Source of the DNA: Tubulanus polymorphus
Lineage: Eukaryota; Animalia; Nemertea
Assembly: GCF_964204645.1 (NCBI RefSeq)
Contig: NC_134025.1
Span: 18,823,101 to 18,887,100, forward strand
Direction: 5' to 3'
DNA: 64,000 nucleotides
Below, piece by piece: positions 1,409 to 56,528 of the stretch; position 1 is the stretch's first letter, and every line of letters begins with the position of its first letter. Below the pieces are notes generated by a model, which worked only from the letters and a program-made list of their open reading frames with translations, was not told where the DNA came from and did no database searches. A program made the position numbers and the translations under genes.

Positions 1409-1520
1409 TTTCGACCGTGTTCATTACTCATCACTTTTCAAATCATTACTGAAACGAAGAATAGTTTAATTGATTTTTATTTCATATGGAAAACAAGTTA
1501 TGCCGGTTACATGTAACCAG

Positions 1521-1895
1521 AGTAATAGGGATAATAGGCTTTCATACCAAAGGTCGAAAGGTCGAGCTCGTAAAAAAATGAAAATAACAATAATTTACAG
1601 TTGAATTAGTCGCGCACACTCCTAATTCAACTGTAAATTATTATTATTTTCACTTTTTACTCACTCGCCCCTTCAACCTTTGATATGAAAGCCTATTATC
1701 CCTATTACTCTTAAAATATTCATATATATGAATAAAATATAAATGAATAACATATATAAGTAACGAGTAATTAACGAGCTCTTATAGAATAGATATAAAA
1801 GTATATATTTACAACATTATTTCAATATTTATATTTGTGTGAGTTAGATTTTTAAACATTAAAAGTGTTAGTAAAGTGTGATTGAAATAATGCAT
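1521..1895 (+). repeat. Left TIR of E1; 1521-1709 is an imperfect palindrome (hairpin)
   Basis: Reverse complement of 17649-18023, one substitution seen; AGTAATAGGGATAATAGGCTTTCATA (1521) pairs with TATGAAAGCCTATTATCCCTATTACT (ends 1709). Confidence 0.95.
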
Positions 1896-1949
1896 GATAT
1901 AAATCATCGAACTTCTAAAAACAATTTAAAAAAAAAATTTAGTATTAAA

Positions 1950-4900
1950 ATGGAAGCAAATAAGTACTACTGTCCAACATGTAATATCAATATAGATAAA
2001 TCCCAAAAAGCAAGACACAATAAAACTAAAACACATTTAGAGAATAAATTGAAACTAGAATATAACGATGATATATTAGAAACTAAATTAGATGAATTAA
2101 AGAATGAAAAAGAAACATACAAATGTGATACATGTAATCAATCATTCACTGATAAAAGATATTATAATGAACATTTAAAATCTAAAAGTCATATTAGAAA
2201 TATGAATAATGATATTTTAGGTGAAGATTATTTTGATAAAGATAATGATAAGAAACAGAAGACAACTAAAAGCATAAAAAATAAATTAAACAATAAAAGA
2301 CCATACATGGAAGATGTAAGAAAATATATTAATTCATTAGATAATAAAAAAGATATAGAGATAACCGAAGCATTTAAAAGTGATATTGGTCCAGCAGCTA
2401 TCGAGTTTAAATTTCATAAAGGAAAAACATTAGAAGAAAATAAAAAACATTTAGAAAATATGAAAAATATCAATATCAAAAATAATTACTGATGTCCTGT
2501 TACTGATATCCTAAAATAAGTATATCAGTTAAAGTAAAGTTTATAAAATCTGAAGATAAACCAATATATAATATAAATTCTCATTCACAACATATTATAT
2601 CTAAACAACATATAGATGATAAATTAGATAAATGTTATAATGAAGTAAAAACTAAAATAGAAGAGAAATATTTTGAAGGATCTGGTTTAATATTTGATGA
2701 AATAATATTTATGACTTTACATGTTTATAACACAAAATATAATAAGTTAACTAAATCGAAACCAATTGATGAAAATAATGTATCATATTATAAAGAACCA
2801 GATATTGAAGCATCGAGTTATATCAAACTACCATTTAAAACTAATGCTGTAATAAATGTACAAAATGAAGATGATAAATGTTTTCTATGGGCTATAATAA
2901 GTTGTTTACATCCAACAGAAGATATTACACATAGTTTTAGATTAACTCATTATAAACCATTTGAAAATAATTATAAGATAGATAAGTATCCTGTTAGAAT
3001 TAAAAACATCCCAAAAATAGAAAGAGATAATAATTTAAGAATAAATGTATTTGATTTAATCAAATTACCAAATACAAAAGGTAACAATATAAAACATTAT
3101 ACATTAGAACCTTTATATCTATCAAAAGATTATGATTCAAACGATGTTATAGATATATTATATTATGAGAATCATTATATGTGGATTAAACAAATAGATT
3201 TATTCTTTAGAACAGAAAGTGATCACCATAATAAAATATATCTATGTAGAAAATGTTTACATAGATTCAGTAATGAAAGTACATTATTAAATCATAAACA
3301 ATTATGTGAAAATCATGATTATTGTAAATTAGTTTTACCAAATGAAAAAGATAAAATATTAGAATTCAAAAAATGTGATTACAAAAATAAAGTACCATTT
3401 GTTATATATGGAGATTTTGAATCATTAAATAAAGAATTAACTGATCAAGATAGAAAAGAAATATATTATAAAAGAAAGAAATTAAATTCTAATGAAAATG
3501 ATTTTTCAGATGAACCACCAAAAACAAATACTATCAAAAAGATTCATCAATCAGCTGCGGCTTTCGGGTTATATATTAAATCTGATTATCCAGAACTAAT
3601 TGAAAGTGAATATTATGATTATAGAAATGAAAATGTTATCAATCATTTTTGTGACTTATTAATTGAATATGAAATAAGATTTAGTAAATTATTGAATACA
3701 AATATAGAAATTATAATGACAGAAGAAGATAAAGAAGAATTTGAGTTTGCAGATAAATGTTATTATTGTGAAAAGATATTTAATTTTAGAGATAAAAAAG
3801 TAAGAGACCATGATCATTTGAATGGAAAGTTTAGAGGCGCCGCGCATGAGAATTGTAACTTACAAGCTAAGAAAATTAATTTTGTACCAGTTATATTTCA
3901 TAATCTATCAGGATATGATGCACATTTATTCATCAAACAGTTATGCCATAAAATAGAAGAAATCAATAATGAAATAGAAAGATTAAATTCAAATAGATCA
4001 AAAGATAAAATACCAACTTATAAATTTAGAATGTTAGCTAAAACATCTGAGAATTATATATCATTCCAATTTGGTTGCCTAAGATTTATAGATTCATATA
4101 GATTTTTAAATAGTTCATTAGATAACTTATCAAAATCATTAGTTGATGATGAATTAAAAATATTAAAGCAACACTATCCAAATAATGATGATTTTCAATT
4201 AATGAGATATATAGGAGCAATTCCATATTCTTTCTATAAAAATCATAATGATTTTAACATAACTGAATTATTAACAGAACAATTTTATGATGAATTAAAA
4301 AATGAATATGTTAAAGATGAAGTATATAACAGAACATTGAATATTTGGAATCATTTCAAAATAGAAAATCATGGGCAATTAGTAGATTTATATCTAAAAT
4401 CAGATGTATTATTATTAACCGATATATTCGGAAGGTTTAGAGATGTAAACCTAAAATATTTTAATATTGATCCTTGTCATTGTTATTCATCACCAGGTTT
4501 AACATGGGATTGTGGATTAAAATTTACAGATATAAAAATGGATTTCTTAACAAATATAGATCAATTACTATTATTTGAAAAATCTATAAGAGGAGGAGTT
4601 TCAGGTGTATTAGGTGATAGATATTTCAATGTAAATGATAACCCTTGATATAAGTTATTATATATAGATGCAAATAATTTGTATGGTTGGGCAATGATGG
4701 AACCACAACCTTATGGAGTATTTGAATTAACTGAAGTTTTACAGAATGAAAATAATGATAAATTTGATTGGAAGAAAAGAATTCTAGATATTGCAGATGA
4801 TTCAGATTCTGGTTACTTCTTTGTTGTAGATTTAGAATATCCTGAACATATTAAATTTAAATCTAGAAATCTAGCATACTGTCCCGAACATAAAACCGTT

Positions 4901-6001
4901 ACTCATGAAGAATTATCAAATTATCAAAAAAGAATTAAACCCGAAAATCTTATTCATACAGAAAAGTTAATGGTAACTCAAGAAGATAAATATAATTATG
5001 TAGTACATTATAGAATGTTAAAGTTTTATTTGAATCAAGGAATGATTCTAAAAAAAGTACATAGATATATTTCATTCAGCCTATCTAAGTGGTTAGAAAA
5101 ATATATAGATTTTACCACCAAACAGAGAACTGAAGCTAAAACTGATTTCGAAAAAGATTTCTTCAAGTTAATGAATAATGCATTCTATGGTAAGACTTGT
5201 GAAAATATTAGAAATAGAAATGATATTGAGTTAGTTAGTAATGGTAAAAGAATTAGACATTTACAATCATATCCTAAGTTCATTGGTAACAGAATATTTG
5301 ATGAAAATTTAGCTGCAGTTAAGATGAGAAGAACATTTATGAAATTTAATAAACCAATCTATGTTGGCGCATCAGTTTTAGAATTATCAAAATTACTAAT
5401 GTATGAATTCTATTATAATGTATTACAACCACTTTTTGTAGAAAAACATATAGAAATATTATATTTTGATACAGATTCTTACATATTAAAGATAAAAACT
5501 GATAACATAACTAATGATTTAAAAACATTAAAACATCATTTTGATTTCAGTAACTATCCTAAAAATCATGAATTATTTAGCAATGATAATAAAAAAGTTA
5601 CAGGGAAGTTTAAGGATGAATTAGGTGGTGAAGATATGATAGAGTTCATTGGTATTAGATCTAAAATGTATTCATATAAAACTAAAGAACATGAATCTAA
5701 AAAGTTAAATGGAATAACCAAAAATGTAGTAGAAAAGAATATTCATTTCAAAGATTACATCAATTGTATATTCAATGAAGAAGTTAGAAAACATAAGATG
5801 AGATGTTTAAGATCTGAAGATCATGAAATGTTTATTGAAGAAATTGAAAAGATAAGTCTAAACCCATTTGATGATAAAAGATATATTTTAGATGATAGAA
5901 TTCATACAGTTGCTTATGGATGTAATTTAGATGAATACTTAAAATTTAAAAGAGAAGAAACAAAAGGGAACGAGATAATGAAAAGAATTCTAACGTGTTA
6001 A
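1950..6001 (+). pseudogene. polB: Protein-primed-type family B DNA polymerase (N-terminal C2H2 fingers, putative OTU-like protease region, exonuclease with endonuclease VII/HNH-like insert); frameshift near 2470-2510 and stop near 4646
   Basis: Motifs IYGDFES, FHNLSGYDAH, FIDSYRF, YIDANNLYGWAM, KLMNNAFYGK, YFDTDS; colinear with E2 gene, which has GGA where E1 has TGA. Confidence 0.92.
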
Positions 6002-6030
6002 TCAAATTTTAATAAAAATATGTATTATAA

Positions 6031-6384
6031 ATGGAGAGTAAACAAGCAAACAGTGAGAACAACAAATTATTTCTAGATAGAATTAAAGATATCACAAATG
6101 TAAAATCTGTAGATTATAAATTCAAAAAGTTAACAGAATTAACAATTCATAAGAAATATCTAATTACAAATATTGATACAGTTACTAATAACTATGGAGA
6201 TAAATTAGTTATACACTTAGTATGTGAAGGATTAAAAGGAAATACATATAAATTCAGAACATATTTACCGGATAGATTTCATAGATTATCAAGTGAAGAC
6301 TTAGAAGAATTATGTTCTGGAGATTTCTATTTCGTATACAAAGGTAAGAATGAAAAAGGGCATCATGAAATAGATTTCGAATAA
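6031..6384 (+). CDS. Conserved 117-aa protein, possibly ssDNA-binding (uncertain)
   Basis: Intact ORF conserved in E2 (54363); FKKLTEL..YG..LPDRF..VYKG pattern; TAAATG start; function is inference. Confidence 0.6.
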   Translation: MESKQANSENNKLFLDRIKDITNVKSVDYKFKKLTELTIHKKYLITNIDTVTNNYGDKLVIHLVCEGLKGNTYKFRTYLPDRFHRLSSEDLEELCSGDFYFVYKGKNEKGHHEIDFE

Positions 6385-6398
6385 AATATGTAAAATAA

Positions 6399-7146
6399 AT
6401 GGTAGAATTAAAAGAATACAGAATATTTGTTGATTCTAGAATGCTTACAAATTATAAATCTCATAATTTACTAGTACAATTAGATAGAGAATTCAAGAAT
6501 TGTGTTGATTTAAAATTAGTTAATATAAGTTTATGTAATTCTTTTTATAATATATCGGATAAAACTATTGATCATAATGCTTTTATGATTCATATTAGAA
6601 ATGTAAATAAATGGTTTCACCTAATTTTAAAACCAGGATTATATAATTTAGAAACATTAGCTCAAGAAATTAATAGAAGAGCACGGTTGAAAATTAGAAG
6701 TGAAGATAAATCTTTAATTAGATTTTTAAAAAGTGATAGCACAAATAAAATTAAAATAAAGGTATATGATATATGGTATAGTGAGAAAACCTATAACTAA
6801 ACTGTTAGGAATTGTACCAGATACCGTTACAGGAAACGTAGATGGTAATTCAAATATAGTACCTTTTACACACTTTTATATTTATTGCAATTTAATCGAG
6901 CCTACAAAAACTTTCGAAGCAACTAAAGAAACAATTTGTAGTTCTAGTATACTTAATATTTTACCGCTGAAAAATGTTAAACAATTTGGAACTCAAATAA
7001 ATTATAATTTAACTGAATGTGATTTTAAACCTTGCATTCCTAAATTTGATAATTTCAAATTAGAAATAAGAAATCATAATGGACATTTAATTGATTTGAA
7101 TAACTTTCCTGTAATTTATGAATTAGTTATAAGATGTAAAGAGTAA
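6399..7146 (+). pseudogene. Probable minor capsid (penton) protein, frameshifted near 6765
   Basis: Two ORFs (6399-6800, 6766-7146) match the single 253-aa ORF of E2; SFYNI..PGLYN and YIYCNLI..LEIRN..LIDLNN patterns resemble Polinton/PLV pentons. Confidence 0.65.
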
Positions 7147-7162
7147 TTTTTTCACTATATAA

Positions 7163-7519
7163 ATGAATATAACTGTTGGGCCGAGTATATGTTTTGGGTT
7201 TGATTTTAAACGTGAGAAAGAAATGAAATTTAACATTAATGATGTAATTACACATATTAAAAATATTGCATTTTCTAATGAAACAACATTTGAGTATGAA
7301 ACAACAATAGATAAAGAAACTTTAATTGTAGAAAAGATTACTAATTTAATTAGAGAATCTTTAAGATTTCATGAATTAGATGAAGATTTTATTATAGATG
7401 ATATTAAAAAAATAATAATTGAAATATATACAAATGAAACTAGTAATGAAATAAATGTTGAATTAATCATAAATAAGTTAACTAAATATTTTGATGATAG
7501 TAATTTTTTTGATAAATAA
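7163..7519 (+). CDS. Hypothetical 118-aa protein
   Basis: Homolog at 55499; TAAATG start. Confidence 0.7.
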   Translation: MNITVGPSICFGFDFKREKEMKFNINDVITHIKNIAFSNETTFEYETTIDKETLIVEKITNLIRESLRFHELDEDFIIDDIKKIIIEIYTNETSNEINVELIINKLTKYFDDSNFFDK

Positions 7520-7741
7520 ATGAGTGATAATAAGTGGATAATAACTGGATTATATAATGGCGCATTACTATCAGTTGGAACTGTTGGTTATTCAATGGTA
7601 TTAAAAAAAGTATTTAAAATGGGAAGTGTTAATGTTGATAGATTTGATATCAATGATATTTTAAAATTAACATTAGCAGTTACTTTATCTAATTTAACTA
7701 TTGATTATTTAGAAAAACAAAAATATATTCCTCCCATATAA
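7520..7741 (+). CDS. Small hydrophobic 73-aa protein
   Basis: Identical protein at 55841; two hydrophobic stretches; TAAATG start. Confidence 0.75.
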   Translation: MSDNKWIITGLYNGALLSVGTVGYSMVLKKVFKMGSVNVDRFDINDILKLTLAVTLSNLTIDYLEKQKYIPPI

Positions 7742-7765
7742 ATGCATCATTATTTTACTAAATAA

Positions 7766-8188
7766 ATGGCTTCTGCAGTTATAACTATTATAGGATCAGC
7801 AATTGTTAACGCTTTAGCATTTACTGGTGGTGGTTATTTATTTAAGCATATTGATAAAAATGGTTCATTAACAGAACAAAGAAGACATAACTTAGCATTA
7901 GAGAAATATAATAAAGCAGCAGAAGAATATAGAGAAAAGAGGCAAAACTATATGGATTGTATTAACAAAGAATTATATGATCAGAAGATTTCACATAGAG
8001 ATTTTCAATCAGTTGATGATGCAATGAGTTTATATAACGCGGTAACCAATAAAGAAAAATTACATCTATACAAACCTAAATTATCAGATTATTATACCCC
8101 AAGTAATGAACAGAAGAAATATGAAATAATATGGATTTTAGGCGGAACAGTTATTGTTATATTTGTTGCTTATAAGTTTACTAATTAG
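7766..8188 (+). CDS. 140-aa membrane protein (hydrophobic N- and C-termini, central helix)
   Basis: Homolog at 56087; TAAATG start. Confidence 0.75.
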   Translation: MASAVITIIGSAIVNALAFTGGGYLFKHIDKNGSLTEQRRHNLALEKYNKAAEEYREKRQNYMDCINKELYDQKISHRDFQSVDDAMSLYNAVTNKEKLHLYKPKLSDYYTPSNEQKKYEIIWILGGTVIVIFVAYKFTN

Positions 8189-8208
8189 TAATTTTTTTTG
8201 CTAAATAA

Positions 8209-8642
8209 ATGGAAGATAAAGTTGATAATATTGATATTATTCCTCATGATATAAATAAAACTAAATTAAAAATATATTTAGAAAAACAAATATTAGAATT
8301 TGAAAGTGACTTAAAGATAAAAAAGAAAAAATATTCAAAATCTAAAATTATATATAATTTGATTATAAGTGGTTCGGTTACAATTAGTTCTGTAATAACA
8401 TTTCTAGCAATATTCAGTCCATTAACACCTTTAGCTATATCAATTGGTGTATTAGGATTAAGTTCAAGTGTTTTAACTGGTATAAGTTCAAAATTAAATA
8501 TAAAAAGTAATAAAGAAAAAATTAAAACTAATATAAAGAAATTAATAAATTAAAGAATACACTAGATTATATAATAAGTTCAAATGGTCATATAACAGTT
8601 GAAGAACAAGATAAATTATTAAAAGAATTAGTTGATTATTAA
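8209..8642 (+). pseudogene. Two-TM membrane protein, frameshifted near 8538
   Basis: Matches intact 144-aa ORF 56529-56963; 1-bp loss in E1. Confidence 0.7.
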
Positions 8643-8658
8643 TTTTTTAGTTATATAA

Positions 8659-10043
8659 ATGGCAGATAGTTTTCCAAAAGCTTTCCAATATAATAAATCA
8701 ATTAAATATAATATTCCAGCAATAGATTTTAATAAAGATATTACATATAGAAATGAAGTTTTAAATTCATTAATTGATTGATATATTTATGTTACTGAAA
8801 GTAATAATTTTCATGTTAAGATGGAAAATATATTTCATGTGTATACAATTAATTTCAAAAATTTAAATGAGGCAAAACAATGGTTATTAAAATCTAATAT
8901 GAAGTATTGGCAGAACCAATTAAATTTTGCTGTTTATTGTGCAACAACAGGATGTGGAATTAGTTGGAATGATCATTTAAACAAACCAAGTTTACCATTG
9001 ATGTTATCACTTTTTAGATTTCATACATATTTTCAAATAAAATTAATATTAGATGAATTAGAATGTCCTTTACCAGGTTCAAAATATTTTAAAGAATTGA
9101 ATAATAATATTAATTTTTCTAAGTTTTATAAAATATGTAATGAATTTAATATTAATTCAAATAAAGATTTTACAGCAAAAATTGGAACAATGGGTGGATT
9201 AGTAATATTATATACTAAAGAATTTGGAAAAATAATGACAAATTCAGATATAAGAACACTAAATTGGAATGAATTACCAAAATATTATAATAATATACAA
9301 CAACAAAACACTAATGGTTGGGTTAATTTCATTTTAGAAAATAGTGAAGGTTTTGCTAAAGCTGGAATACAAAGAATAAATCACTCTATTAGAACTTATT
9401 TGATATGTATTTTAGGTGCGCAAGTTGAAACAAGATCCCCAATAATTGGAAATGATAACACTTCATTCGATGCGCAGAAACAATTCAAAGTATTATTTGA
9501 AGATTCCATTCATAATGATAAAAATAGATCTATTCCAGAAAACATTGTAAGATATCAAAATTATTTAGATGAATCACATATTAGATTAAATTATTGTATA
9601 GGCCCTAATCTATTTATTATTTCTAATGCTTTAGTATTAAAGATGGGAAACATGATTGGTTACAATAATCTAATTAAACTGCAACAATAAATAATTCATT
9701 TGGATTAAATGATATAAATAGAAAGATTATCACTGCTCCAAAATTAATGGAAGGTGAAAAAAATAAAAAACACATTCAATCAACAGAAACTAAAACTAAG
9801 AATATTAAATTAAATAATGATTCTAAAATAAAAGATTACAATACATCAATGCACTCGACAGAAAAAAAAGAAGAACCAATTCCTAATATTGATTTAAACA
9901 AATATTCACCATTTAAAAATCCAAATTTAAATCCTAATGATGTTGATCCAGAAACCGATGAAGACTTTGCAAATCGATTAGATAAATTAAGATCTTCAAC
10001 ACCCGAAACATCGAGAAGAGACACTCTTAGTGAATATGATTAA
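8659..10043 (+). pseudogene. Conserved protein of unknown function (YWQNQLNFAVYCATTGCG), disrupted and joined to a different 3' end after ~9848
   Basis: Matches 464-aa ORF 56981-58375; early stop near 8778, frameshift near 9677. Confidence 0.75.
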
Positions 10044-10073
10044 AAATAAATAATTATTTTTTTTGTTAAATAA

Positions 10074-11321
10074 ATGAGTGGGAGTTATATCAATCCTTCT
10101 AAGAATCATAGAATATCTAATGCTATTAAAGCAGAAAGATCACATCATATAATTACTCATAATCCTTCAAATATTAATCCCGATGAAACTTTATATGTTA
10201 GAATCCCTAGATTAACACAAAATACTTTTTACGTTCCAAATAGTATTTATTTATCAGCCGATATAAAAGTAACCCGTAATAATAATAATTATGTTGTTGA
10301 TAATGTTGGAAGATATTTGATTAAAAAATTAACTATAAAGATTGGTCCAGAAACAGTTTTCTCATTAGATGATTATAATTTATTTATGCATTATAAAGAT
10401 TTATGGTTAACTAAAGAAAATAGAAATAATATGATATTCCAAGGCATCCAATCAGAAAACCAAAATAAATTAAGATCAGAAGCTAATAGCGCAATATTAA
10501 CTAATGCTGTAGATAAATTGATAAAAAGTATATATGGAAGCAAATATAAAATTCCATTAGACTTTGAATTGATAAATGACAACGCACCTTTACATAAATA
10601 CGCAATTCAAGAAGACGTTATATTCGAAATAACATTTGCTCCTGTAAATGAAATTGTAATATCTAGCGTTAATAAAGATATGCGTTATAAATTATCGAAT
10701 ATATGTTTAGAATATGATACAGTAACTGATGAAAATATTTCAAGTATAATTCAAACTAAATACAATCAAGGATTTTCATTATTATATGATTATATTGATA
10801 AATTTAAAACTGTAACTATTAATGCAAATGATGAAATAATTGATGAGAATATTAACTTCCCAAGAAGATCTATTAAAGGTATATTAATATTTTTTACCAT
10901 TGCAACATATACTAATGGCGCAATAAATGTTGATAATTATTATAATCCTGAAATAACAAAAGTAGAAATAACTATCGAAGGAATAGCAAATAAGATATTT
11001 TGTCAAGGAATGAGAATGATTGATCAATGGCCAGAAATTAGAAAACATTTTATGAATGAAAAAGTGAAATCATCTGAAAATTGTAACATTAATCAAATTG
11101 ATTATTATACCGGTAACAAATATGCATTATGGTTAGATTTTAGAACAAGAGAGGATAATTCATTACATGGTTCTGGAAAAAAACTACAGAACACTAAAGA
11201 TGGAATACAATTATTCATGACAAAGAATAAAGGAATCAAAAATTTCAAAATGCACATTTATATTATATCTGACGCGCAATTGAATATTGTAAATTCACAA
11301 TTAGATAGTGTTATGTATTAA
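10074..11321 (+). CDS. Probable major capsid protein (double jelly-roll), 415 aa, intact
   Basis: Size, beta-rich pattern (NPSNI..LYVRIP, YKIPLDFEL, FEITFAP, LSNICLEYD), strong conservation with 59967-61214, context; fold is inferred. Confidence 0.75.
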   Translation: MSGSYINPSKNHRISNAIKAERSHHIITHNPSNINPDETLYVRIPRLTQNTFYVPNSIYLSADIKVTRNNNNYVVDNVGRYLIKKLTIKIGPETVFSLDDYNLFMHYKDLWLTKENRNNMIFQGIQSENQNKLRSEANSAILTNAVDKLIKSIYGSKYKIPLDFELINDNAPLHKYAIQEDVIFEITFAPVNEIVISSVNKDMRYKLSNICLEYDTVTDENISSIIQTKYNQGFSLLYDYIDKFKTVTINANDEIIDENINFPRRSIKGILIFFTIATYTNGAINVDNYYNPEITKVEITIEGIANKIFCQGMRMIDQWPEIRKHFMNEKVKSSENCNINQIDYYTGNKYALWLDFRTREDNSLHGSGKKLQNTKDGIQLFMTKNKGIKNFKMHIYIISDAQLNIVNSQLDSVMY

Positions 11322-11353
11322 AATTTTAACTCTAATAAAAATTTATTATATAA

Positions 11354-12301
11354 ATGGAAGGAGGTAAAGTATATAAACATATTCCATACATCGATACACA
11401 TGAAAATAATGATGGTTTATATTATGTAATACCTTGTAATATAGCTTTGATATTTGATCCTATTTTCAAAATTTATAAAACTAAACTAATAGAAATCGAT
11501 AATAATAAAAGTGGTGTTGTTGATAATTTAAGTAATGTAATTGATAATAATGTAATATCTTCTACATCTAATAATGTAATACCTACTACATCTAATAATG
11601 TAATACCTACTACATCTAATAATGTAATACCTTCTACATCTAATAATGTAATACCTTCTACATCTAATAATGTAATACCTTCTACATCTAATAATGAAAT
11701 ATTATTAAATGTTAGTGAAAATAGAAATTATTGTGATTATTGTAAAGGCGAATTTTCAAACGCTCCATCAAATTGGAATAATCATATGAATACAAATTCA
11801 CATATTACTAATGTTATAAAACGTGTTGGTTTAAAAGAATTTATAGAACACCCATTTAGATATGTTACAAAGTTTGTTTCAAATCAAAAAGTAAATGGTG
11901 AAAAAATATATGAAGATTTATTATTAGCAACACCTAATAAAGATGAATTAGATCTAACCAATGCTAATGAAATATTAGGATCAAACACTGTAAATGAAAT
12001 ATTAGGAGCAAACACTAATAAAGATAATAATGAAAATACAGGAAAGCGCATTGATAATAAAGATTCTATGAAACTTAAATCAGAAAATAAAGATATAGTT
12101 GAGATGACTAATAAGTATATCAATAAACCAATTATTTATGAAGATACGGTTAAAAGGGTGAAGAATAAGTACAAAAATAATAAAGAATTTGAAGAAGAAA
12201 ATTCGGTAGAGAATTTGAATAGATTGTTAGGGTCTGATGATGAATTGGAGAGTGATTCAGAAAGTGATTCAGAAAGTGATCATCTAACACTCAAACAGTA
12301 A
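11354..12301 (+). CDS. Variable zinc-finger protein with 6x NNVIP(S/T)TS repeat and acidic tail
   Basis: CDYC..HMNTNSH finger; open 315-aa ORF; TAAATG start. Confidence 0.7.
   Translation: MEGGKVYKHIPYIDTHENNDGLYYVIPCNIALIFDPIFKIYKTKLIEIDNNKSGVVDNLSNVIDNNVISSTSNNVIPTTSNNVIPTTSNNVIPSTSNNVIPSTSNNVIPSTSNNEILLNVSENRNYCDYCKGEFSNAPSNWNNHMNTNSHITNVIKRVGLKEFIEHPFRYVTKFVSNQKVNGEKIYEDLLLATPNKDELDLTNANEILGSNTVNEILGANTNKDNNENTGKRIDNKDSMKLKSENKDIVEMTNKYINKPIIYEDTVKRVKNKYKNNKEFEEENSVENLNRLLGSDDELESDSESDSESDHLTLKQ
11545..11688 (+). repeat. In-frame 24-bp tandem repeat x6
   Basis: TAATAATGTAATACCT(T/A)CTACATC units. Confidence 0.95.
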
Positions 12302-12304
12302 TAA

Positions 12305-12655
12305 AGGTTGAAAATTGTATAAAATAATAGTAAATAAAAAAGGGGGTTTTAAGTATTAAGGTATCTAATACATATCTAATACGTATCTAATACGTATCTA
12401 ATACGTATTTAATACATATTATTTGAAAATACCTTAAATTATATTTCTTTTTCAAATTTATATTGAAACCTCAGTAATAATGAATAATCTTTATTATTTT
12501 CAAACTTATTCATATATTAGTTGAAAAAAATAAAAATAAATTGGTTGAAAATTGTATGAATAATATTTATTTTAAAAAAGGGGGTTTTAAGTACTAATGT
12601 ATTTAATACGTATTAAATACGTATTAAATACGTATTAGATACATAGGTATACAAA
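12305..12655. repeat. Structured intergenic region between convergent gene arms of E1
   Basis: Two direct copies of GGTTGAAAATTGTAT..AAAAAAGGGGGTTTTAAGTA, each followed by 11-bp quasi-palindromic GTAT(C/T)(T/A)AATAC units. Confidence 0.85.
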
Positions 12656-12658
12656 TAG

Positions 12659-13270
12659 TTATTTTATAAATTTATATTCATATGGAAATTGTAATCTCAG
12701 TAATAATTTTGAACCTTTATTATTCTTTAATTTATTCATATATTCATCATGTAATTCAGTAGGTATAATTTGATTTTCTTCTAATGATTGTTGCATAGAT
12801 TTGTTATCTTTGTTATAAGATAAAACTAGAAATCTTATATTCTCCCTAAAGTCTTTAACAATTGAATTATATTTTTGTTTTAAAACCCATGTTGTTATCC
12901 CAAAATGTCTTCCAGAGAAAGCTAAATAACATAACTCACTTTCTCTAACTTTTGAATCATGTAAATTTGCGCAATCATCTATAATGAATAATGTAATTGA
13001 TCCTTTATAAGTATCAATTGCTATTTTAATACAATTATCTAAATTTTCTTTTACTGTTTTAGGATTTAATATAATAAACTTTTTTATCCTAACTATATCT
13101 CTATTATATGTTTTATTCATTTCATAAGTAGGACAAAATAATATTATGTTATCAAAATGATTCTTATAAATAGTTTCTAACAAATCTAATATGAAATTTG
13201 TTTGACCACAATTGGTTACTCCAGTTATTAACATATTATGCGGTTCGAATATGAATAAATCTTTATTCAT
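12659..13270 (-). CDS. A32/FtsK-like packaging ATPase; Walker A lysine replaced by Q
   Basis: ITGVTNCGQT (E2 has GKT), Walker B FIIDD, SGRHFGIT arginine motif. Confidence 0.85.
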   Translation of the reverse strand: MNKDLFIFEPHNMLITGVTNCGQTNFILDLLETIYKNHFDNIILFCPTYEMNKTYNRDIVRIKKFIILNPKTVKENLDNCIKIAIDTYKGSITLFIIDDCANLHDSKVRESELCYLAFSGRHFGITTWVLKQKYNSIVKDFRENIRFLVLSYNKDNKSMQQSLEENQIIPTELHDEYMNKLKNNKGSKLLLRLQFPYEYKFIK

Positions 13271-14381
13271 TTATTCTTTTAATTTTACTAGATAAAATCC
13301 ATTCATTAAACTTATCATCATATCCTTTATATTTCACCAAAGAATACTTTTTTCCTTTAAGAGTTTTTGTTTTCAATACTTTTTCTATTTTGTATTCTAT
13401 TTCATCTGGATTTGGTACAAGTGATAATTCTTGTTCATAGAAATAACCTAATATTTCTTCATCTTTTAGATCTTCTAGTTTATAAACAAATGGTTTAGTT
13501 AATATTATCTTTTTAATCTTAAATATTTCTTCTGTAAAATTAGGGGTATAACCTTTATAAAATGTTTTTCTACATTTAGATATTCTGACGTGTTGTCCAA
13601 TTTTGAATCTAGGTTCACCGAAATCATGTGTAACAAATGCTCCATATAAATTATTCCAAACAATTTCCGAATTATCTTCTTTTCTAGCTTGTATAGGTTT
13701 CATATTTATAGAACTATGTTTAGAATTATTATAACCTTTCACTAAATCATCTAATACATCGATATATTTATATGTTTCATTAGCAGTAAAATATTTCCAC
13801 ATTCTAGTTTTCAATGTTTTATTAAATCTTTCTATAATAGATGCTTTTTTATCTGAATGTGTTGAAAAATAATCTACATCGTTATCAGATAATAGTTTTT
13901 TAAAATGTTTGTTATAGAATTCCTTACCTTCATCAAATTGTATCTTATCTGGAATAGCTTCTTTAAATATTGATTTAAAAGCATTTGTTACTTCTATTCC
14001 AGTTTTATTTTTGATTGGAATTGACCATGCGTATGGACTGAATATGTCTATAACATTTAATATCCAGAAATATCCTTTGTTGTATTCCTCTAAGTTCTTC
14101 ATGTCAATTAAATCTGCTTGCCATTGTTGATCGATATATGAAACCATAACTTTTCTTGTTAAATAAGTTTTATCCATTTTCTTGTGTATTTGATATGTTG
14201 GTTGATTTTGTAACCATGATTTTAATTCACTATATTTTATACCACCATGTGGGTGCCGTACGGCACCATCACCATTTTGATTATCAGATTTAATTTTATT
14301 CCATAATTCTGAAACGTTAGAATATGATACTTCACTTTCTGGGTTATAATATAAATCTCTTAAATATTGTTCTTTTTTCAT
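13263..14381 (-). CDS. int: Retroviral-like DDE integrase with C-terminal chromodomain
   Basis: WQADLIDM, VIDIFS, QFDEGKEF, IERFNKTLK; YKIEKVLK..LVKYKGYDDKFNEWI. Confidence 0.93.
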   Translation of the reverse strand: MKKEQYLRDLYYNPESEVSYSNVSELWNKIKSDNQNGDGAVRHPHGGIKYSELKSWLQNQPTYQIHKKMDKTYLTRKVMVSYIDQQWQADLIDMKNLEEYNKGYFWILNVIDIFSPYAWSIPIKNKTGIEVTNAFKSIFKEAIPDKIQFDEGKEFYNKHFKKLLSDNDVDYFSTHSDKKASIIERFNKTLKTRMWKYFTANETYKYIDVLDDLVKGYNNSKHSSINMKPIQARKEDNSEIVWNNLYGAFVTHDFGEPRFKIGQHVRISKCRKTFYKGYTPNFTEEIFKIKKIILTKPFVYKLEDLKDEEILGYFYEQELSLVPNPDEIEYKIEKVLKTKTLKGKKYSLVKYKGYDDKFNEWILSSKIKRINE

Positions 14382-14388
14382 CTTATTT

Positions 14389-14745
14389 TAATCCATTAAT
14401 AATAATTTAGATTTAGTTTCAATGGCTTTATGATTTGACTTATTTTCTTGTATAATAGGTTTATTGTCATTGGAATCATCTTTATCATTAGATTTGAATT
14501 TTGATTTATACATTACACCGGATAATATAATAACTGTTACTAATCCAATTGTAATATATAATTTATAATTACTTCCAGCATTAGAAGAATCAGATGGATT
14601 ATTATTTGAATCAATATCAGGTGATTCATTTATATCAGTTAATTTCTTTTTCTTAGCTTTTTTTAATTCTGAAGATCTTTTACCTAATTCTCTTGCCCAT
14701 TTAATTTGTTACTCGGATCTAGCCTTTTTCTTAACGCTATCATTC
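14389..14745 (-). pseudogene. Small basic single-TM protein, internal stop
   Basis: Manual reading gives WARELGKRSSELKKAKKKK..LYITIGLVTVIILSGVMY; homolog in relic near 39535-39890. Confidence 0.5.
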
Positions 14746-15345
14746 ACTTTTAGTTAATTTTTGTTCTGATTCATTTTCTGTTCCACCGTTTGGTTGTAGT
14801 ACAGCGTCATCTGTTTCGTTCTTACCTGATTTATATTCCATAGGTTTGATATTCGAAAATGTTATGACACCAGTAGAAATTAATGTCATAACCGATCCTA
14901 ATTGGAATGAAGCATATCCAACCCATTTTTGTAATTCAGTCATAACTAAATAGTCATTTTTCAAATCACTATATCATTTATTTTCATCATCAATTGGTAT
15001 TAACTGGTAACATAACTTAGAGTAACATTTGACAATACCATCTGAAATAGAATCATTTATTCTAGCTAATCTTGCCTCTTCATAAATCTTAAAATATTTT
15101 ATTACTTTATCTGGTTTCATAGCATCTAATTCTTGGAAAGTAATGATTCTATTTAAAAACTCCTTAGTTTTTCCACCGGCAATCAATAGTTCTAGATGAT
15201 GCTTACAATATAAATAGTATTCATAATCTATATTTCAATTAACTTGAGCACAATTAGTTACAACTGTATCTTTATTATCACTTATACCCAAATCATCTAA
15301 TGTTTTTTCAATATCAATACTATTCTTATTAGATTTCTTTGACAT
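14740..15345 (-). pseudogene. Conserved ~200-aa protein with hydrophobic C-terminal part, disrupted
   Basis: ORFs 14974-15186 and 14740-14964 are continuous in relic ORF 39131-39541; TAAATG start at 15345. Confidence 0.65.
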
Positions 15346-15673
15346 TTATATTAGAGAAAAAAAGCAAAAAAATATTATAAGTATTCTTCAAATGATACTA
15401 GCTAGTTAAAACTAAAGAATTCTAGTATTGACTACTGATACTAGCTATTTGAATTTAAAGAATTTCTATTTGAATCTATTCAAAATATAAAGTATTCTTT
15501 TTTGAAAAGAAAATATTAAAAATATAATAGAATTCACTAGCTAGTTGAAGTTATTGTTTTTTTATTATATTTTATTTAAATTCTATTTGATATCACCATG
15601 TGGGTGCCGTACGGCACCATCTCACTACTATTGTCTATCTATTAGGAGCAGTAATTATAACTGTCCAGATAAG

Positions 15674-16354
15674 TCATTTCGGATCCTTGATATCAAATTC
15701 CTCAACGTATTGTTCATTATTTGGATCATTGTTCCATTGATCAATAAATTTCTTTGCCTTTGTTAACTGTTCTAAATATAACTGTAAATCTAGTTTATTA
15801 GATTTGATTTGATTTTCTTTCTTTTCTAAAGGCCTTAAATTTTTCCAACCCCAAATAAGTTTTTTATTGTATTCATCATTCATGTTAAATTTAGATATTG
15901 GTAACACGTGATCAATATGGTAATAATCCCCATAATTATCTATATTCATTTTATCATCGAATTTAAATATAATCCATGATTTGAGAAATTCATCTGAACA
16001 ACCGAATAGATTAGATAGTGTTTCTGAATGTGTTTCTTTGTTGAATAATTGTGTTAATCTAGATCTTAAGCATAGTTTCAATCTAAAATTAAGATCTGTT
16101 TGATATCTTTCTCTCATATATTCTGTCATATAATCATTATAAGCTTCTCTATTATCTTCTCGATATTGTTTGGTATATAGTTTAAAACAAGTTTTACAAC
16201 AATATTGAAAACCATCTTTGCTAATCTTACGCTTACTAAATTCTGTTAAAGCTAATTTATCTAATTCACATTTAGAACACTTCTTGTAGTATATATTTAT
16301 AACACCAGCAGTGTTATTTGTAATATTGATAATTTGCGGTTGTTCTGGTTCCAT
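15674..16354 (-). CDS. HNH endonuclease with N-terminal Cys4 zinc finger
   Basis: CSKC..FSKRKISKDGFQYCCKTC; NYGDYYHIDHVLPIS..NLRPL..ENQIKSNK. Confidence 0.8.
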   Translation of the reverse strand: MEPEQPQIINITNNTAGVINIYYKKCSKCELDKLALTEFSKRKISKDGFQYCCKTCFKLYTKQYREDNREAYNDYMTEYMRERYQTDLNFRLKLCLRSRLTQLFNKETHSETLSNLFGCSDEFLKSWIIFKFDDKMNIDNYGDYYHIDHVLPISKFNMNDEYNKKLIWGWKNLRPLEKKENQIKSNKLDLQLYLEQLTKAKKFIDQWNNDPNNEQYVEEFDIKDPK

Positions 16355-16489
16355 TTATTATATGTATTTTTTTACTAAATTGGTTAATATTTTAGAATCC
16401 TCTTCCATTTCTTCGACCAACGTCATCCTTTTTCATTCCTCGCTGCTTTTGATAAGTTGTTTCGATTCCTTGATATCTGAATAATACCA

Positions 16490-16950
16490 CTGGGCAAAAG
16501 CGCGCATTCATGCGCGCTTTTGCTTAATGCGCATGCGTTAATCATAATTATATATTCATTATGTAAATTCTGTAAAATAGAAACAACCGAACACAGAAAA
16601 TATCAAAACGTGTTCGCATTAGGCAAAACCGCGCATTCATGCGCGGTTTTGCTCAATGCGCATGCGTTAATCATAATTATATATTCATTATGTAAATTCT
16701 GTAAAATAGAAACAACCGACATGAAATATCTAAACGTGTTCGCATTAGGCAAACCGCGCATTCATGCGCGGTTTTGTTCAATGTACATGCGTTAATCATA
16801 ATTATATATTCATTATGTAAATAGAAACAACCGACATGAAATATCTAAATCATACCACTGAGCAAAACCGCGCATTCGTGCGCGGTTTTGCTCAATGCGC
16901 ATGCGCTAATCCTAATTATATATTCATTCTGAATAGAAACGACCGAACAT
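16490..16950. repeat. Four ~113-129 bp tandem units, each with a ~30-bp GC-rich palindrome
   Basis: GCAAAACCGCGCATTCATGCGCGGTTTTGC-type cores at 16494, 16623, 16749, 16862. Confidence 0.92.
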
Positions 16951-17648
16951 AAAAATTCGCCAACCAGATTTACACAATACATTATACAAGTTGTTCGGCT
17001 TTTTCTTCCAATACAATTTATAATTACAAACATTTTTTCAATTGCTGGTAAATATTTAACTACATCAACAAATGTTAAACTTAATCATTGGAGTCTTAAT
17101 GTTTTTGAAATTCTTATATAGTTTCTTCGTCGATCTTTTGGCGATTCTTGTGTTTCTTGTGCTAATTTCTATTGGTTCGATATCCATTGCTGTTGATTCC
17201 TCAGTCAGAAAGAGTATCTTGAGTTTCTCTATCTCTTCTTGATGCGTATGGCGTTTTATTAATCTAAAAGATATTAGCGGCAACTCTAGCCATCTAAAAG
17301 ATATACTAAATACACTTAAATATATCTAAAGGTTTCATATTTAATAGCCCTAATAACTACAAAAAACAGTACTTACATTTAGATTTAGAATTGTAAACTA
17401 TAAACTCCTAATTTCGTTTCGAGAGATAGAATATCCTGAGCGTAATGTTACAGCGCCTGTTCATTTCCTGCCACGTCATCTGGTTCCGGTTCTAGAGTGT
17501 TCTACACGTTTGCAATATTATGACTCATATGTTTCGGCGTCATAGTAACAGCTGTAACAGCTGTGAATTTATAGATTTATTCAATAGTTCATTACATGAA
17601 ATGTATATAGGCTCAAATAGAATCATGTTCTAGTATAAATAAACAGCT

Positions 17649-18023
17649 ATGCATTATTTCAATCACACTTTACTAACACTTTTAATGTTTAAAAATCTAA
17701 CTCACACAAATATAAATATTGAAATAATGTTGTAAATATATACTTTTATATCTATTCTATAAGAGCTCGTTAATTACTCGTTACTTATATATGTTATTCA
17801 TTTATATTTTATTCATATATATGAATATTTTAAGAGTAATAGGGATAATAGGCTTTCATATCAAAGGTTGAAGGGGCGAGTGAGTAAAAAATGAAAATAA
17901 TAATAATTTACAGTTGAATTAGGAGTGTGCGCGACTAATTCAACTGTAAATTATTGTTATTTTCATTTTTTTACGAGCTCGACCTTTCGACCTTTGGTAT
18001 GAAAGCCTATTATCCCTATTACT
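17649..18023 (-). repeat. Right TIR of E1; hairpin at 17835-18023
   Basis: Reverse complement of 1521-1895, followed by TSD AACCAG. Confidence 0.95.
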
Positions 18024-18619
18024 AACCAGTCTTTCCCGCGGAATTTTCCATTGGATTAAAACAAGGGCCGTCCAATTTTGACGGTATAGAGAGTATGGCG
18101 GTATATATCGTGGGTATTTTACTATGTATTTGTAAAGAGATGTACATTGTTCACAATTTAAATTGTTCATCAAATTTGGCAAATATCTGCTCAGGGTAAA
18201 GAAACGTTCTGTTAATTCTGCTGTTCGCGGTAATCTGGGACAGTTCCCTCTACTTATAATTTTCTTGCCACTTATGGTCAAATAGTGGCTGCGCATTCTG
18301 TAAAATAGACAGTTCGACGATGGGTTAAATTCCCTAAAATCCAAATTCCTCAAAGTAGGTAAAAATCCCCCTCCTTCTGAATGTAGTTTAAGTAGATACA
18401 ATCTTAAGGTCAATTAATTCATAATTATGATACATATATCTAATTTATTATTGCGAAACATCTTAAGGATATCATGATCATACAAACTTTGAATTAAAAC
18501 ATACTACAAATTAACACAGCTTAATGAAAGGGTTCATCGCACATTTCAAATGTATTACACTAGCTTGAATCTTAAATATCTAGAATAAAAAGTTCATTAT
18601 TGCTTATAAATTCATGGCA

Positions 18620-50016: not shown

Positions 50017-50222
50017 AGTAATAGGAGTTTAGTTGTTTCATACCAAAGGTCGAAAGGTCGAGCCCGAGAAATTTTCCAAATGTTAAAATAACAATAATTT
50101 CTACTTGAATTAGTCGCGTACACTCCTAATTCAAGTAGAAATTATTATTATTTTAACATTTGGAAAATTTATCAACCTCAACCTTTCGACCTTTGATATG
50201 AAACAACTAAACCCCTATTACT
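50017..50222 (+). repeat. Terminal imperfect hairpin of E2 (206 nt)
   Basis: AGTAATAGGAGTTTAGTTGTTTCATA pairs with TATGAAACAACTAAACCCCTATTACT. Confidence 0.93.
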
Positions 50223-50304
50223 CTTAAAATATTCATATATATATGAATAACATTTAAATCATTGAACTTCTAAAATCAATTTTAATAAAAAATTTAGTAT
50301 TAAA

Positions 50305-53300
50305 ATGGAAGCAAATAAGTACTACTGCCCAACATGTAATATCGATATAGATAAATCCCAAAAAGCAAGACACAATAAAACTAGAACACATTTAGAGAAT
50401 AAATTGAAACTAGAATATAAAGATGATATATTAGAAACTAAATTAGAAGAATTAAAGGATGAAAAAGAAACATACAAATGTGATATATGTAATCAATCAT
50501 TCAGTGATAAAAGATATTATAAAGAACATTTAAAATCTATAAGTCATATTAGAAATAAGAATAATGATATTTTAGGTGAAGATTATTTTGATAATGATAA
50601 CGATAAGAAACATAAGACAATTAAAAGAATAAAAAATAAATTAAACAATAAAAGACCATATATGGAAGATGTAAGAAATTATATTAATTCATTAGATAAT
50701 AAAAAAGATATAGAGATAACCGAAGCATTTAAAAGTGATATTGGTCCAGCAGCTATCGAGTTTAAATTTCATAAAAGTAAAACAATAGAAGAAAATAAAA
50801 AACATTTAGAAAATATGAAAGAAATAATAAAAATAATTACAGATGTTGAATATCCTAAAATTAGTATATCAGTTAAAGTAAAGTTTATAAAATCTGAAGA
50901 TAAACCAATATATAATATAAATTCTCATTCACAACATATTATATCTAAACAACATATAGATGATAAATTAGATAAATGTTATAATGAAATAAAAACTAAA
51001 ATAGAAGAGAAATATTTTGAAGGATCTGGTTTAATATTTGATGAGATAATATTTATAACTTTACATGTTTATAACACAAAATATAATAAGTTAACTAAAT
51101 CAAAACCAATTGATGAAAATAATTTATCATATTATAAAGATGATAGTATAAATGGAACAAGTTATATTAAACTACCATTTAAAACTAATGGTGTAATAAA
51201 TATACAAAATTTTGATAATAAATGTTTTCTATGGGTTATAATAAGTTGTTTACATCCAACAGAAGATATTACACACAGTTTTAGATTAACTCATTATAAA
51301 CCATTTGAAAATAATTATAAGATAGATAAGTATCCTGTTAGAATTAAAAACATCCCAAAAATAGAAAGAGATAATAATATAAAGATAAATGTATTTGATT
51401 TAATCAAATTACCAAATACAAAAGGAAATAATATTAAACATTATACATTAGAACCTTTATACCTATCAAAAGATTATGATTCAAATGATGTTATAGATAT
51501 ACTATATTATGAGAATCATTACATGTGGATTAAACAAATCGATTTATTTTTTAAATCAGAAAATGATTTTGATAATAAGATATATATATGTAGAAAATGT
51601 TTACATAAATTCAGAACTGAAGGTGCATTATTAAATCATAAACAACTATGTGATAATCATGATTATTGTAAATTAGTTTTACCAAATGAAAAGGATAAAA
51701 TATTAGAATTCAAAAAATATGATTACAAAAATAAAGTACCATTTGTAATATATGGAGATTTTGAATCATTAAATAAAGAATTAACAGATAAAGATAGAAA
51801 AGATATATATTATAAAAGAAAGAAATTAAATTCTAATGAAAGTGATTATTCAGATGAACCACCAATAACAAATACAATTAAAAAGATTCATCAATCAGCT
51901 GCAGCTTTCGGGTTATATATTAAATCTAATTATCCAGAACTAATCGAAAGTGAATATTATAATTATAGAAATGAAAATGTTATCAATCATTTTTGTGACA
52001 TTAATTGAATATGAAATAAGATTTAGTAAATTATTGAATACAAATAAAGAATTAATTATGACAGAAGAAGATAAAGAAGAATTTGAGTTTGCAGATAAAT
52101 GTTATTATTGTAATCAAGTATTCTATTCATCTGATAAAAAAGTAAGAGACCATAATCATTTGAATGGAAAGTTTAGAGGCGCTGCACATGAGAATTGTAA
52201 TTTGCAAGCAAAGAAAATCAATTTTGTCCCCATTATATTTCATAATCTATCAGGATATGATGCACATTTATTTATCAAACAGCTATGTTATAAAATAGAA
52301 GAAATCAATAATGAAATAGAAATATTAAATTCAAATAGATCAAAAGATAAAATACCAACTTATAAATTTAGAATGTTAGCTAAAACATCTGAGAATTATA
52401 TATCATTCCAATTTGGTTGTCTAAGATTTATAGATTCATATAGATTTTTAAGTAGTTCATTAGATAACTTATCAAAATCATTAGTTGATGATGAATTAAA
52501 GATATTAAAAGAATATTACCCAAATAATGATGATTTTAAATTAATGAGATATAAAGGAGCGATTCCATATTCTTTCTATAAAAATCATAATGATTTTAAA
52601 ATAACTGAATTATTGAAAGAACAATTTTATGATGAATTAAAAAATGAATATGTTAAAGATGAAGTCTATAATAGAACATTGAATATTTGGAATCATTTCG
52701 AAATTAAAAATCATGGACAATTAGTAGATTTATATTTAAAATCAGATGTATTATTATTAACCGATATATTCGAAAGGTTTAGAGATGTAAACCTAAAATA
52801 TTTTAACATTGATCCTTGTCATTGTTATTCATCACCAGGATTAACATGGGATTGTGGATTAAAATTTACAGATATAAAAATGGATTTGTTAACCAATATA
52901 GATCAATTACTATTATTTGAAAAATCTATAAGAGGAGGTGTTTCAGGTGTATTGGGTGATAGATATTTCAATGTAAATGATAATCCTGGATATAAATTAT
53001 TATACATAGATGCAAATAATCTTTATGGTTGGGCAATGATGGAACCACAACCTTATGGGATGTTTGAAATAACTGAAGTTTTACAAATTGATAAATTTGA
53101 TTGGAAGAAAAGAATCCTAGATATTGCAGATGATTCAGATATTGGTTACTTCTTCGTTGTAGATTTAGAATACCCTGAAAATATTAAATTCAAATCTAGA
53201 AATCTAGCATATTGTCCCGAACATAAAACTGTTAAACATGAAGAATTATCAAATTATCAAAAAAGAATTAAACCCGATAATCATATTCATACTGAAAAGT

Positions 53301-54334
53301 TAATGGTAACTCAAGAAAATAAATATAATTACGTTGTGCATTATAGAATGTTGAAGTTTTATTTGAATCAAGGAATGATTCTAAAAAAAGTACATAGATA
53401 TATTTCATTCAGTCAATCTAAATGGTTAGAAAAATATATAGATTTTAATACTACACAGAGAACTAAAGCTAAAACTGATTTTGAGAAGGATTTCTTCAAA
53501 CTAATGAATAATGCATTCTATGGAAAAACTTGTGAAAATATTAGAAATAGAAATGATATTGAGTTAGTTAGTAATGGTAAAAGGATAAGGCATTTACAAT
53601 CATATCCTAAGTTTATAGGTAACAGAATATTTGATGAAAATTTAGCAGCAGTTAAGATGAGAAGAACTTCTATGAAGTTCAATAAACCTATTTATGTTGG
53701 TGCATCAGTTCTAGAAATTTCAAAATTATTAATGTATCAATTTTACTATAACATATTACAACCCCATTTTGGAGAAAAACACATAGAAATTCTATACTTT
53801 GATACAGATTCTTACATATTAAAGATAAAAACTGATAACATAACAGATGATTTAAAAACATTAAAACATCATTTTGATTTCAGTAACTATCCAAAAAATC
53901 ATGAATTGTTTAGCAATGATAATAAAAAAGTTCCAGGGAAGTTTAAGGATGAATTAGGTGGTGAAGAAATGATAGAGTTCATTGGTATTATATCTAAAAT
54001 GTATTCATATAAAACTAAAGAACATGAAGCTAAAAAGTTAAAAGGAATAACCAAAAGCGTTGTTGAAAAGAATATTCATTTTAAAGATTACATCAATTGT
54101 ATATTTAATGAAGAAGTTAGAAAACATAAGATGAAATGTTTAAGATCTGAAGATCATGAAATGTATATTGAAGAGATAGAGAAGATAAGTCTAAACCCAT
54201 TTGATGATAAAAGATATATTTTAGATGATGGAATCCACACAGTCGCCTATGGTTGCAATTTAGATGAATATATAAAATTCAAAAGAGAAGAAACAAAAGA
54301 AAATGAGATTATGAAAAGGATTCTAACGTGTTAA
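50305..54334 (+). pseudogene. polB: Protein-primed-type PolB (~1340 aa), single 2-bp frameshift near 52000
   Basis: Same motifs as E1; GTGACATTAATT versus E1 GTGACTTATTAATT. Confidence 0.92.
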
Positions 54335-54362
54335 TCAATTTCAATAAAAATTTGTATAATAA

Positions 54363-54704: not shown

Positions 54705-54719
54705 AAATATGTAAAATAA

Positions 54720-55481: not shown

Positions 55482-55498
55482 TTTTTTACACTATATAA

Positions 55499-56062: not shown

Positions 56063-56086
56063 ATGCATATTTTTTTTGTTAAATAA

Positions 56087-56509: not shown

Positions 56510-56528
56510 TAATTTTTATTCTAAATAA

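Follow-up and report, generated by a model that had tools for sequence, protein, structure and literature searches.

Background

Polintons, or Mavericks, as a rule have termini of the form AG...CT, and most members carry an adenain/Ulp1-type maturation protease. The available text of PMC12747079 and PMC11071308 lists for these adintovirus-like elements a length of 15-20 kb, long terminal inverted repeats (TIRs), a 6-bp target-site duplication, a protein-primed polymerase (pPolB) with the layout terminal protein-vOTU-exonuclease-polymerase, an integrase, a packaging ATPase and a double jelly-roll capsid protein. How they leave the chromosome and how their replication starts rest on models rather than on experiments.

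Parvovirus hairpins (the AAV ITR and the left end of autonomous parvoviruses) fold back from the terminal base and combine tandem short repeats in the stem with a mismatch whose place is fixed. Flip and flop ends result both from terminal resolution of the AAV type and from the resolution of poxvirus concatemers. Features of the parvovirus left-end hairpin are described in the text available of PMC1185569, and the telomeres of poxviruses and asfarviruses, AT-rich and incompletely paired, are given as covalently closed, with flip and flop forms, in that of PMC8956199. Streptomyces telomeres are protein-capped and undergo fold-back repair (PMC5449611 and PMC4513846, in the sections available).

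Terminal palindromes have recently been described in related viruses: the accessible part of bioRxiv 10.64898/2026.07.28.741278 describes TIR palindromes adjoining the target duplication, seen in four subtypes of virophages and in one of PLVs. They occur preferentially alongside genes other than pPolB, and hairpin-priming is put forward as a model; the supplements of the preprint may list pPolB-bearing subtypes with palindromes. Our literature search, with subscription journals mostly outside it, returned no report of such ends in animal pPolB Polintons. No fold-back TIRs in pPolB Polintons are described in the available parts of PMC11296320, PMC12747079 and 10.64898/2026.10.13.758929, and the hairpins mentioned in bioRxiv 10.1101/2022.05.25.493380 are protein beta-hairpins only.

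Here we analyse a 64,000-nt stretch of DNA (the window) with a Polinton family in which the first 189-257 nt of each TIR are a fold-back, unlike in the Polintons/Mavericks whose descriptions this search returned. As in the Halocafeteria virophage/PLV elements, the palindrome lies inside the TIR and adjoins the target duplication; those palindromes, however, measure 52 nt in the subtype figured in the available part of the preprint and are mostly found without pPolB, whereas ours are long, imperfect and associated with pPolB and a terminal protein. What appears to be new is the occurrence of such palindromes in a terminal-protein element, with strand polarity and a single isomer, together with covariation of the arms; the same part of the preprint reports no test of covariation or of isomers. 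The reading we prefer, to which we would give an even chance, is that the fold-back serves as an end signal and repair template in protein-primed replication, its two arms being matched by arm-to-arm copying.

The element and its genes

The window contains one complete and one truncated copy of the family, with the following coordinates:

1521..18023 (no strand assigned): E1, complete Polinton/Maverick element of 16.5 kb, with TIR pair, 6-bp duplication and gene set
1515..1520 (+): left copy of the 6-bp target-site duplication of E1
18024..18029 (+): right copy of the 6-bp target-site duplication of E1
1521..1895 (+): left TIR of E1, 375 nt, 99.7% identical to the right TIR
17649..18023 (-): right TIR of E1, 375 nt
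50017..64000 (+): E2, second copy, truncated where the window ends, so that its right end and target duplication lie outside; most of it is ~90-95% identical to E1

The E1 TIRs are long and start with AGTAAT, and the element, low in GC, is flanked by a 6-bp duplication. A single base, at position 1653, differs between the two TIRs, and the base of the right TIR is found there in 341 of 348 reads. The following genes were identified:

50305..52008 (+): N-terminal pPolB ORF of E2, with zinc fingers, a terminal-protein-type domain (~aa 130-260) and a vOTU protease (~aa 290-411)
51971..54334 (+): C-terminal pPolB ORF of E2, with an endonuclease VII-like insert and the polymerase domain (PF03175, E 6.8e-16)
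1890..6001 (+): pPolB region of E1, three ORFs (1890-2492, 2711-4648, 4694-6001)
10074..11321 (+): major capsid protein gene of E1, 95.3% identical in DNA to the E2 copy
59967..61214 (+): major capsid protein gene of E2, double jelly-roll model
12659..13270 (-): A32-type packaging ATPase of E1 (PF04665, E 2e-11)
13263..14381 (-): rve integrase with chromodomain of E1 (PF00665, E 1.1e-7; PF00385, E 8.9e-5)

Because it combines pPolB, an rve integrase (PF00665), an A32 ATPase (PF04665), a double jelly-roll capsid protein and the terminal-protein/vOTU layout, this element is a Polinton. Both pPolB genes in the window are split, that of E2 into two overlapping ORFs and that of E1 into three pieces. 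The structure model of the E2 N-terminal ORF (pLDDT 75.7) shows the terminal-protein/vOTU layout given in the available text of PMC11071308: the terminal-protein-type domain matches Y-family little-finger domains (Z 8.6-7.6; top match: rmsd 2.9, 104 residues aligned), and the vOTU domain matches a viral OTU (Z 7.6, rmsd 2.5, 92 aligned). The predicted priming serine (Ser241) lies in the loop that precedes the last strand and is shared by 42 of 44 aligned rows. The vOTU protease looks intact, and its cysteine and histidine are found both in E2 and in P0001, the polymerase of a relative discussed below. The endonuclease VII-like insert of the E2 pPolB matches PF02945 with E 4.6e-4, below the Pfam cut-off. 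The integrase scores 32.5 bits for PF00665 against a cut-off of 32.6, and PF00385 is likewise just under its curated cut-off. The E2 capsid protein (415 aa) gave a model (pLDDT 90.7, pTM 0.89) that matches the PBCV-1 capsid (E 3e-18, TM 0.66). No Pfam match for an adenain/Ulp1-type maturation protease was found among the scanned ORFs of E1.

A 226-aa ORF at 15674-16354 (-) has a Cys-rich N-terminus and no Pfam match; its C-terminus has what looks, by eye, like an HNH-like motif. A small gene of the 6031-6384 type, which follows pPolB in E1 and E2, sits between hairpin and pPolB in two relatives (L004:312-727, L007:570-940, located by eye on DNA).

The terminal fold-back

The structures at the ends are as follows:

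1521..1709 (+): left terminal fold-back of E1, 189 nt, its first base pairing with its last; loop at 1610-1621
17835..18023 (+): right terminal fold-back of E1; if the + strand folds, its 3' end would come to lie at the stem base
50017..50222 (+): left terminal fold-back of E2, 206 nt; loop at 50114-50125
1521..1566 (+): outer-arm end motif of 46 bp, conserved with the same spacing in E1, E2 and the relatives L007 and L008

According to an earlier note on this DNA, each E1 TIR folds back on itself over its first 189 nt, and E2 over its first 206 nt. DNA folding confirmed this: the left end of E1 reaches -65 kcal/mol (z -17.6) and that of E2 -79.4 kcal/mol (z -22.8), with none of 200 shuffles equally good in either case, and the right end of E1 -76.1 kcal/mol (z -20.2). 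The stems, the loop (12 nt) and the two mismatches it had quoted were likewise all found where it had placed them. The opposite strand folds better (-74.0 kcal/mol for the left end of E1, -89.3 for E2), i.e. the strand with its 3' end at the terminus has a fold 9-11 kcal better in both E1 and E2. The end motif consists of an AGTAA tip, a spacer of variable sequence but fixed length and a tandem AGG(T/G)CGA repeat that lies 30 bp from the end. The inner arm has only a degenerate copy of the motif. On the outer arm it is a candidate protein-binding site, either an origin or a site for the integrase.

These ends resemble parvovirus hairpins in the fold-back from the terminal base, the tandem repeats, the fixed mismatch and the 3' end, which in the predicted folds lies fully paired next to a template. 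Such a 3' end and the better fold of its strand would suit a parvovirus-like self-priming mechanism, in which the 3' hairpin primes the second strand and a site-specific nick reopens it, one isomer being returned or integrated; the same model is proposed for the virophage/PLV terminal palindromes in the available part of 10.64898/2026.07.28.741278. For the nick, the endonuclease VII-like insert of pPolB (PF02945, E 1e-4 to 5e-4) or the small nuclease-like ORF would be candidates. Many of the 120 pPolB homologs listed, however, have PF02945 on record as well, and the available text of PMC11071308 interprets inserts of this kind as homing nucleases; the terminal-protein machinery, too, is retained. 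Moreover, unlike in parvoviruses, no Rep/NS1 was found: Pfam gave no match to a Rep/HUH family among the 38 scanned proteins of the window, where several ORFs are still unnamed, and the virus is a duplex, integrating one with a protein-primed polymerase. All told we regard self-priming as rather doubtful, and equally so the broader idea that this Polinton lineage grafted parvovirus-like self-priming hairpins, resolved to a single isomer, onto a protein-primed virus, the 3' hairpin priming synthesis on the strand that is excised or displaced. If true, replication would be of a hybrid kind, and protein-capped genomes could have turned into hairpin-ended ones by such a route.

Read evidence across insertions

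The family was followed in raw Illumina reads of a 2026 run (X4, ~12% of the run) and in contigs of three older runs. Depth in X4 was ~1,100-3,300x over the hairpin vs ~35-95x over the flank, and 1,567 + 367 reads run into unrelated flanks before 1521/1520 (agreement 0.34-0.35); since reads leave the element into unrelated flanks there, many insertions have this exact tip. The same depth and the same reads rule out a fold-back artefact of the assembly.

A stricter mapping retained 2,051 reads at >=94%, with 40 of 94 variant rows listed and the variants unphased. The two mismatches had been said to be kept. Both are common to E1 and E2, but the inner one (1588/1643) is not family-wide, as reads repair the pair: 1643 A>G occurs in 151 of 318 reads and 1588 C>T in 80 of 506, each restoring a Watson-Crick pair. 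The outer C.A looks kept in the family: 1547 C>T (19.4%) closes it, but 1682 G>A (17.5%) creates a C.A at the next pair towards the loop, with a frequency like that of 1546/1684. The four variants at 17.5-19.4%, unphased as the reads are, would fit a single subfamily in which the C.A has moved one pair inward.

The reads also contain shorter variants, in which the inner stem is swapped for smaller self-complementary pieces with a similar loop. As the joints inside the hairpin replace the inner stem in this manner, the length of the hairpin varies while the fold-back is retained. A minor class changes strand at the paired positions 1577/1652 (29 reads in the first mapping, 11 in the stricter one; also two contigs in X1) and may be a partly inverted (inner inversion) or arm-converted end.

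Covariation of the stem arms

Among 58 registered pairs, 13 differ between E1 and E2, and in 12 of these both sides have changed, all from one Watson-Crick pair to another, only one change being single-sided; the claim that the stems differ between copies yet stay paired thus stands. A hypergeometric P of 1.5e-11 for the double-sided changes is overstated, in that it assumes independent sites while the changes fall into about four blocks. The hairpins are 83.5% identical between E1 and E2, vs 95.3% for two coding stretches. In the reads, the five partner pairs with both sites among the listed variant rows are all complementary, with matching frequencies (1531/1699, 26.8/29.0%; 1536/1694, 20.0/17.8%; 1545/1685, 25.6/28.9%; 1546/1684, 19.3/19.3%; 1597/1634, 11.8/14.6%), and 1598/1633 is an additional covarying pair from the first, less strict mapping; several other variants have no partner among the 40 of 94 rows listed.

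The earlier note had spoken of compensatory covariation. The arms do covary, but stepwise compensatory selection is the less apt description: with 12 double-sided changes against one single-sided, and eight of the 12 within one 9-bp block, such block-wise changes would arise more simply by copying one arm from the other. The pattern would show that the arms meet physically at some stage, and as arm-to-arm copying alone suffices to produce it, covariation by itself need not imply selection for pairing.

The same observations are compatible with a neutral by-product, i.e. an ancestral template switch that inverted a copy of the end, followed by recurrent arm-to-arm conversion that matches the arms without any function. 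The block-wise changes (eight in a 9-bp block), the faster divergence of the hairpin than of coding DNA and a relative without hairpin (L008, below) all fit this explanation, and accidental annealing is named as an alternative in the available part of 10.64898/2026.07.28.741278. It accounts poorly for a hairpin kept over 17% polymerase divergence, during which its length went from 189 to 257 nt, for the polarity of the mismatches, and for the survival of the mismatch at pair 27, which conversion should erase; we consider it unlikely.

Mismatch polarity

The C.A mismatch at pair 27 is common to E1, E2 and L007. In the well-aligned stems, all 10 of 10 distinct transition mismatches read C.A on the 5'-end strand (binomial 0.002), as do 14 of 15 when the poorly aligned inner stem of L007 is added (binomial 0.001); these counts were made by hand, omit a private change of the left end of E1 and comprise events that are not phylogenetically independent. 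On the other strand, which has its 3' end at the terminus, such a C.A is a G.T. Judging from the aligned stems, this polarity and the surviving mismatch at pair 27 point to selection; several of the polar mismatches are CG>CA changes in the inner arm, and strand-biased deamination could be an alternative source.

The polarity, as G.T(U), would also fit an outward transcript, and other fold-backs lie between convergent genes of the elements, so that an RNA hairpin was considered, as a terminator or a precursor of small RNA in a transcript that leaves the element across the TIR. This is very improbable, given that at either end of E1 the nearest ORF is directed inward, that the stem begins exactly at the DNA terminus and that Rfam returned no match for the hairpin.

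Isomers

The intact end motif is on the outer arm at all three ends in the window and in L007, i.e. in one isomer. Flip and flop isomers among copies, which the earlier note had proposed to look for, were sought in the reads and at the window ends, and only one isomer was seen, the scope being E1-like reads and integrated copies; genomic reads need not include replicating virus. Among the 2,051 reads, with 14 joints listed, there is no flop or head-to-head joint (outer arm to internal sequence on the opposite strand); three of the 14 join opposite strands, at 1577/1652 (11 reads), 1584/1652 (4) and 1647/1699 (6). The flop marker 1683 A>G is absent among the 40 of 94 variant rows listed (lowest ~3%), and a loose end behind 1709 is absent among the 6 of 92 listed (lowest 104 reads), compared with 643 before 1520/1521.

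The absence of such joints also speaks against self-priming. In its favour, in the available text of PMC1185569 the parvovirus left end is reported, with doubts, in flip form only, and with the intact motif on the outer arm alone, a flop end with its degenerate outer motif might integrate poorly.

The earlier note had likened the fold-backs to poxvirus, asfarvirus and parvovirus telomeres. Poxvirus/asfarvirus- or AAV-type ends find no support, as the reads of integrated copies showed neither a flop isomer nor a head-to-head junction, while pPolB keeps its terminal-protein domain and vOTU. Covalently closed flip/flop telomeres in the style of poxviruses and asfarviruses, resolved from concatemers and with the mismatches as packaging signals, would share with our ends the AT-rich, incompletely paired hairpin and would suit a virus with an A32-type ATPase and a double jelly-roll capsid, and mismatches matter for maturation in vaccinia (PMC8956199, in the text available). 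The single isomer, the retained terminal protein and the integration of the entire palindrome in duplex form, with a tip of the classic kind and a target duplication of 6 bp, nevertheless leave this explanation with hardly any probability.

Relatives

We gathered 104 loci by polymerase or motif, most of them without a visible terminus and so uninformative either way; four close relatives (L004, L006, L007 and L008) extend upstream of the polymerase gene and can be judged fully or partly. In L007, whose polymerase P0001 is 83% identical, the fold-back measures 257 nt (z -12.5), and either end of its stem shows the same tip; its outer 27 pairs differ from E1 by double changes that are Watson-Crick in 7 of 7 cases, and its two strands fold equally (-69.4/-69.5). 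L004 starts inside a hairpin that ends in the same way as in E1 and L007, and L006 is too short for its hairpin to be judged. L008 (52% identical over the N-terminal ORF, with an open pPolB frame of 1,333 aa) carries the 46-bp motif too, spaced identically, but lacks a return arm (z -0.3). The fold-back, seen in the reads, in L007 and in L004, is a property of the family, and one relative, L008, is without it. A TIR pair is visible in three distant relatives out of the 48 loci that span >=6 kb, and a terminal fold-back starting at the first base is absent from all three. Given L008 and these three, the hairpin is not needed by all such elements, and the end motif is the older, separable part and the hairpin a feature of the lineage.

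Any fold-back at all was found in 18 of the 104 loci, most of them AT-rich or internal and set aside; the long hairpins near the polymerase that remain among the scanned loci are those of L007, L003 and L079. The latter two, both in distant relatives (L003:4657-4840 and L079:7526-7708; 183-184 nt, z -17.1 and -24.1), lie upstream of pPolB with opposite polarity, in that the AGTAGT motif at the stem's foot faces away from the loop. The hairpin of L003 is located between the integrase side and pPolB, as expected of an end-to-end junction, and that of L079 has retroelement sequence upstream; they are possibly a second way of building hairpin ends. In viral contigs, the end motif gave one unrelated coding match and otherwise none, and a capsid-alignment search found no relative.

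A possible role in protein-primed replication

We prefer a role as end signal and repair template because the hairpin begins at base 1, its arms covary, the intact motif is on the outer arm, G.T has a polarity, one isomer is integrated and the terminal-protein and vOTU folds are present; the comparison is of three full hairpins, all from integrated copies. During strand-displacement replication or after excision, the single strand that ends in the hairpin 3' would fold up with its final base paired at the stem's foot. Folding would locally rebuild the duplex end motif for the initiation complex of terminal protein and pPolB, and the folded strand could act as a template for repair of the end. 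Initiation would remain protein-primed, with the result that a single orientation is kept, and occasional fold-back copying between the arms would produce the block-wise double changes and symmetric length variants. From the earlier note, a role at the ends of the free genome survives as the likeliest reading of the fold-back; for poxvirus-, asfarvirus- or AAV-type ends there is no support.

The nearest working analogy for fold-back repair is the Streptomyces telomere, which in the available parts of PMC5449611 and PMC4513846 likewise combines terminal-protein priming with a foldable 3' single strand that can be repaired by extension on the fold-back. Streptomyces has several short palindromes, Tpg/Tap and internal origins, whereas here there is one long hairpin and an unrelated pPolB, so the likeness is by analogy only. 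A young multi-copy family together with a hairpin-less relative as natural control provides substrates with which to ask whether such ends are protein-primed, self-primed or both, and the hairpin next to a separable 46-bp motif bears on the kinship of hairpin-ended and protein-capped viral genomes.

Other features in the window

Large internal fold-backs between convergent genes, at 12300-12745 in E1 and 62265-62680 in E2, differ in sequence and are candidate two-way terminators. The right non-coding region of E1 (16473-16955) contains 3-4 tandem units of 110-130 nt, each with a GC-rich palindrome. At 39179-41899 lies an inverted fragment of a third family copy, from the integrase region and without TIRs (81-92% identical), interrupted at 40230-41016 by an insertion with 186-nt inverted ends. 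An array at 46897-48819 consists of ~200-nt units, each palindromic around a TA-rich centre, and is MITE- or satellite-like. A fragmentary retroelement at 30184-31773 contains DUF5641, a domain linked to BEL/Pao elements, from which an animal is the likely host. Directly to the right of E1, a retroelement of the Gypsy type, bounded on either side by 64-nt repeats, spans 18581-25384.
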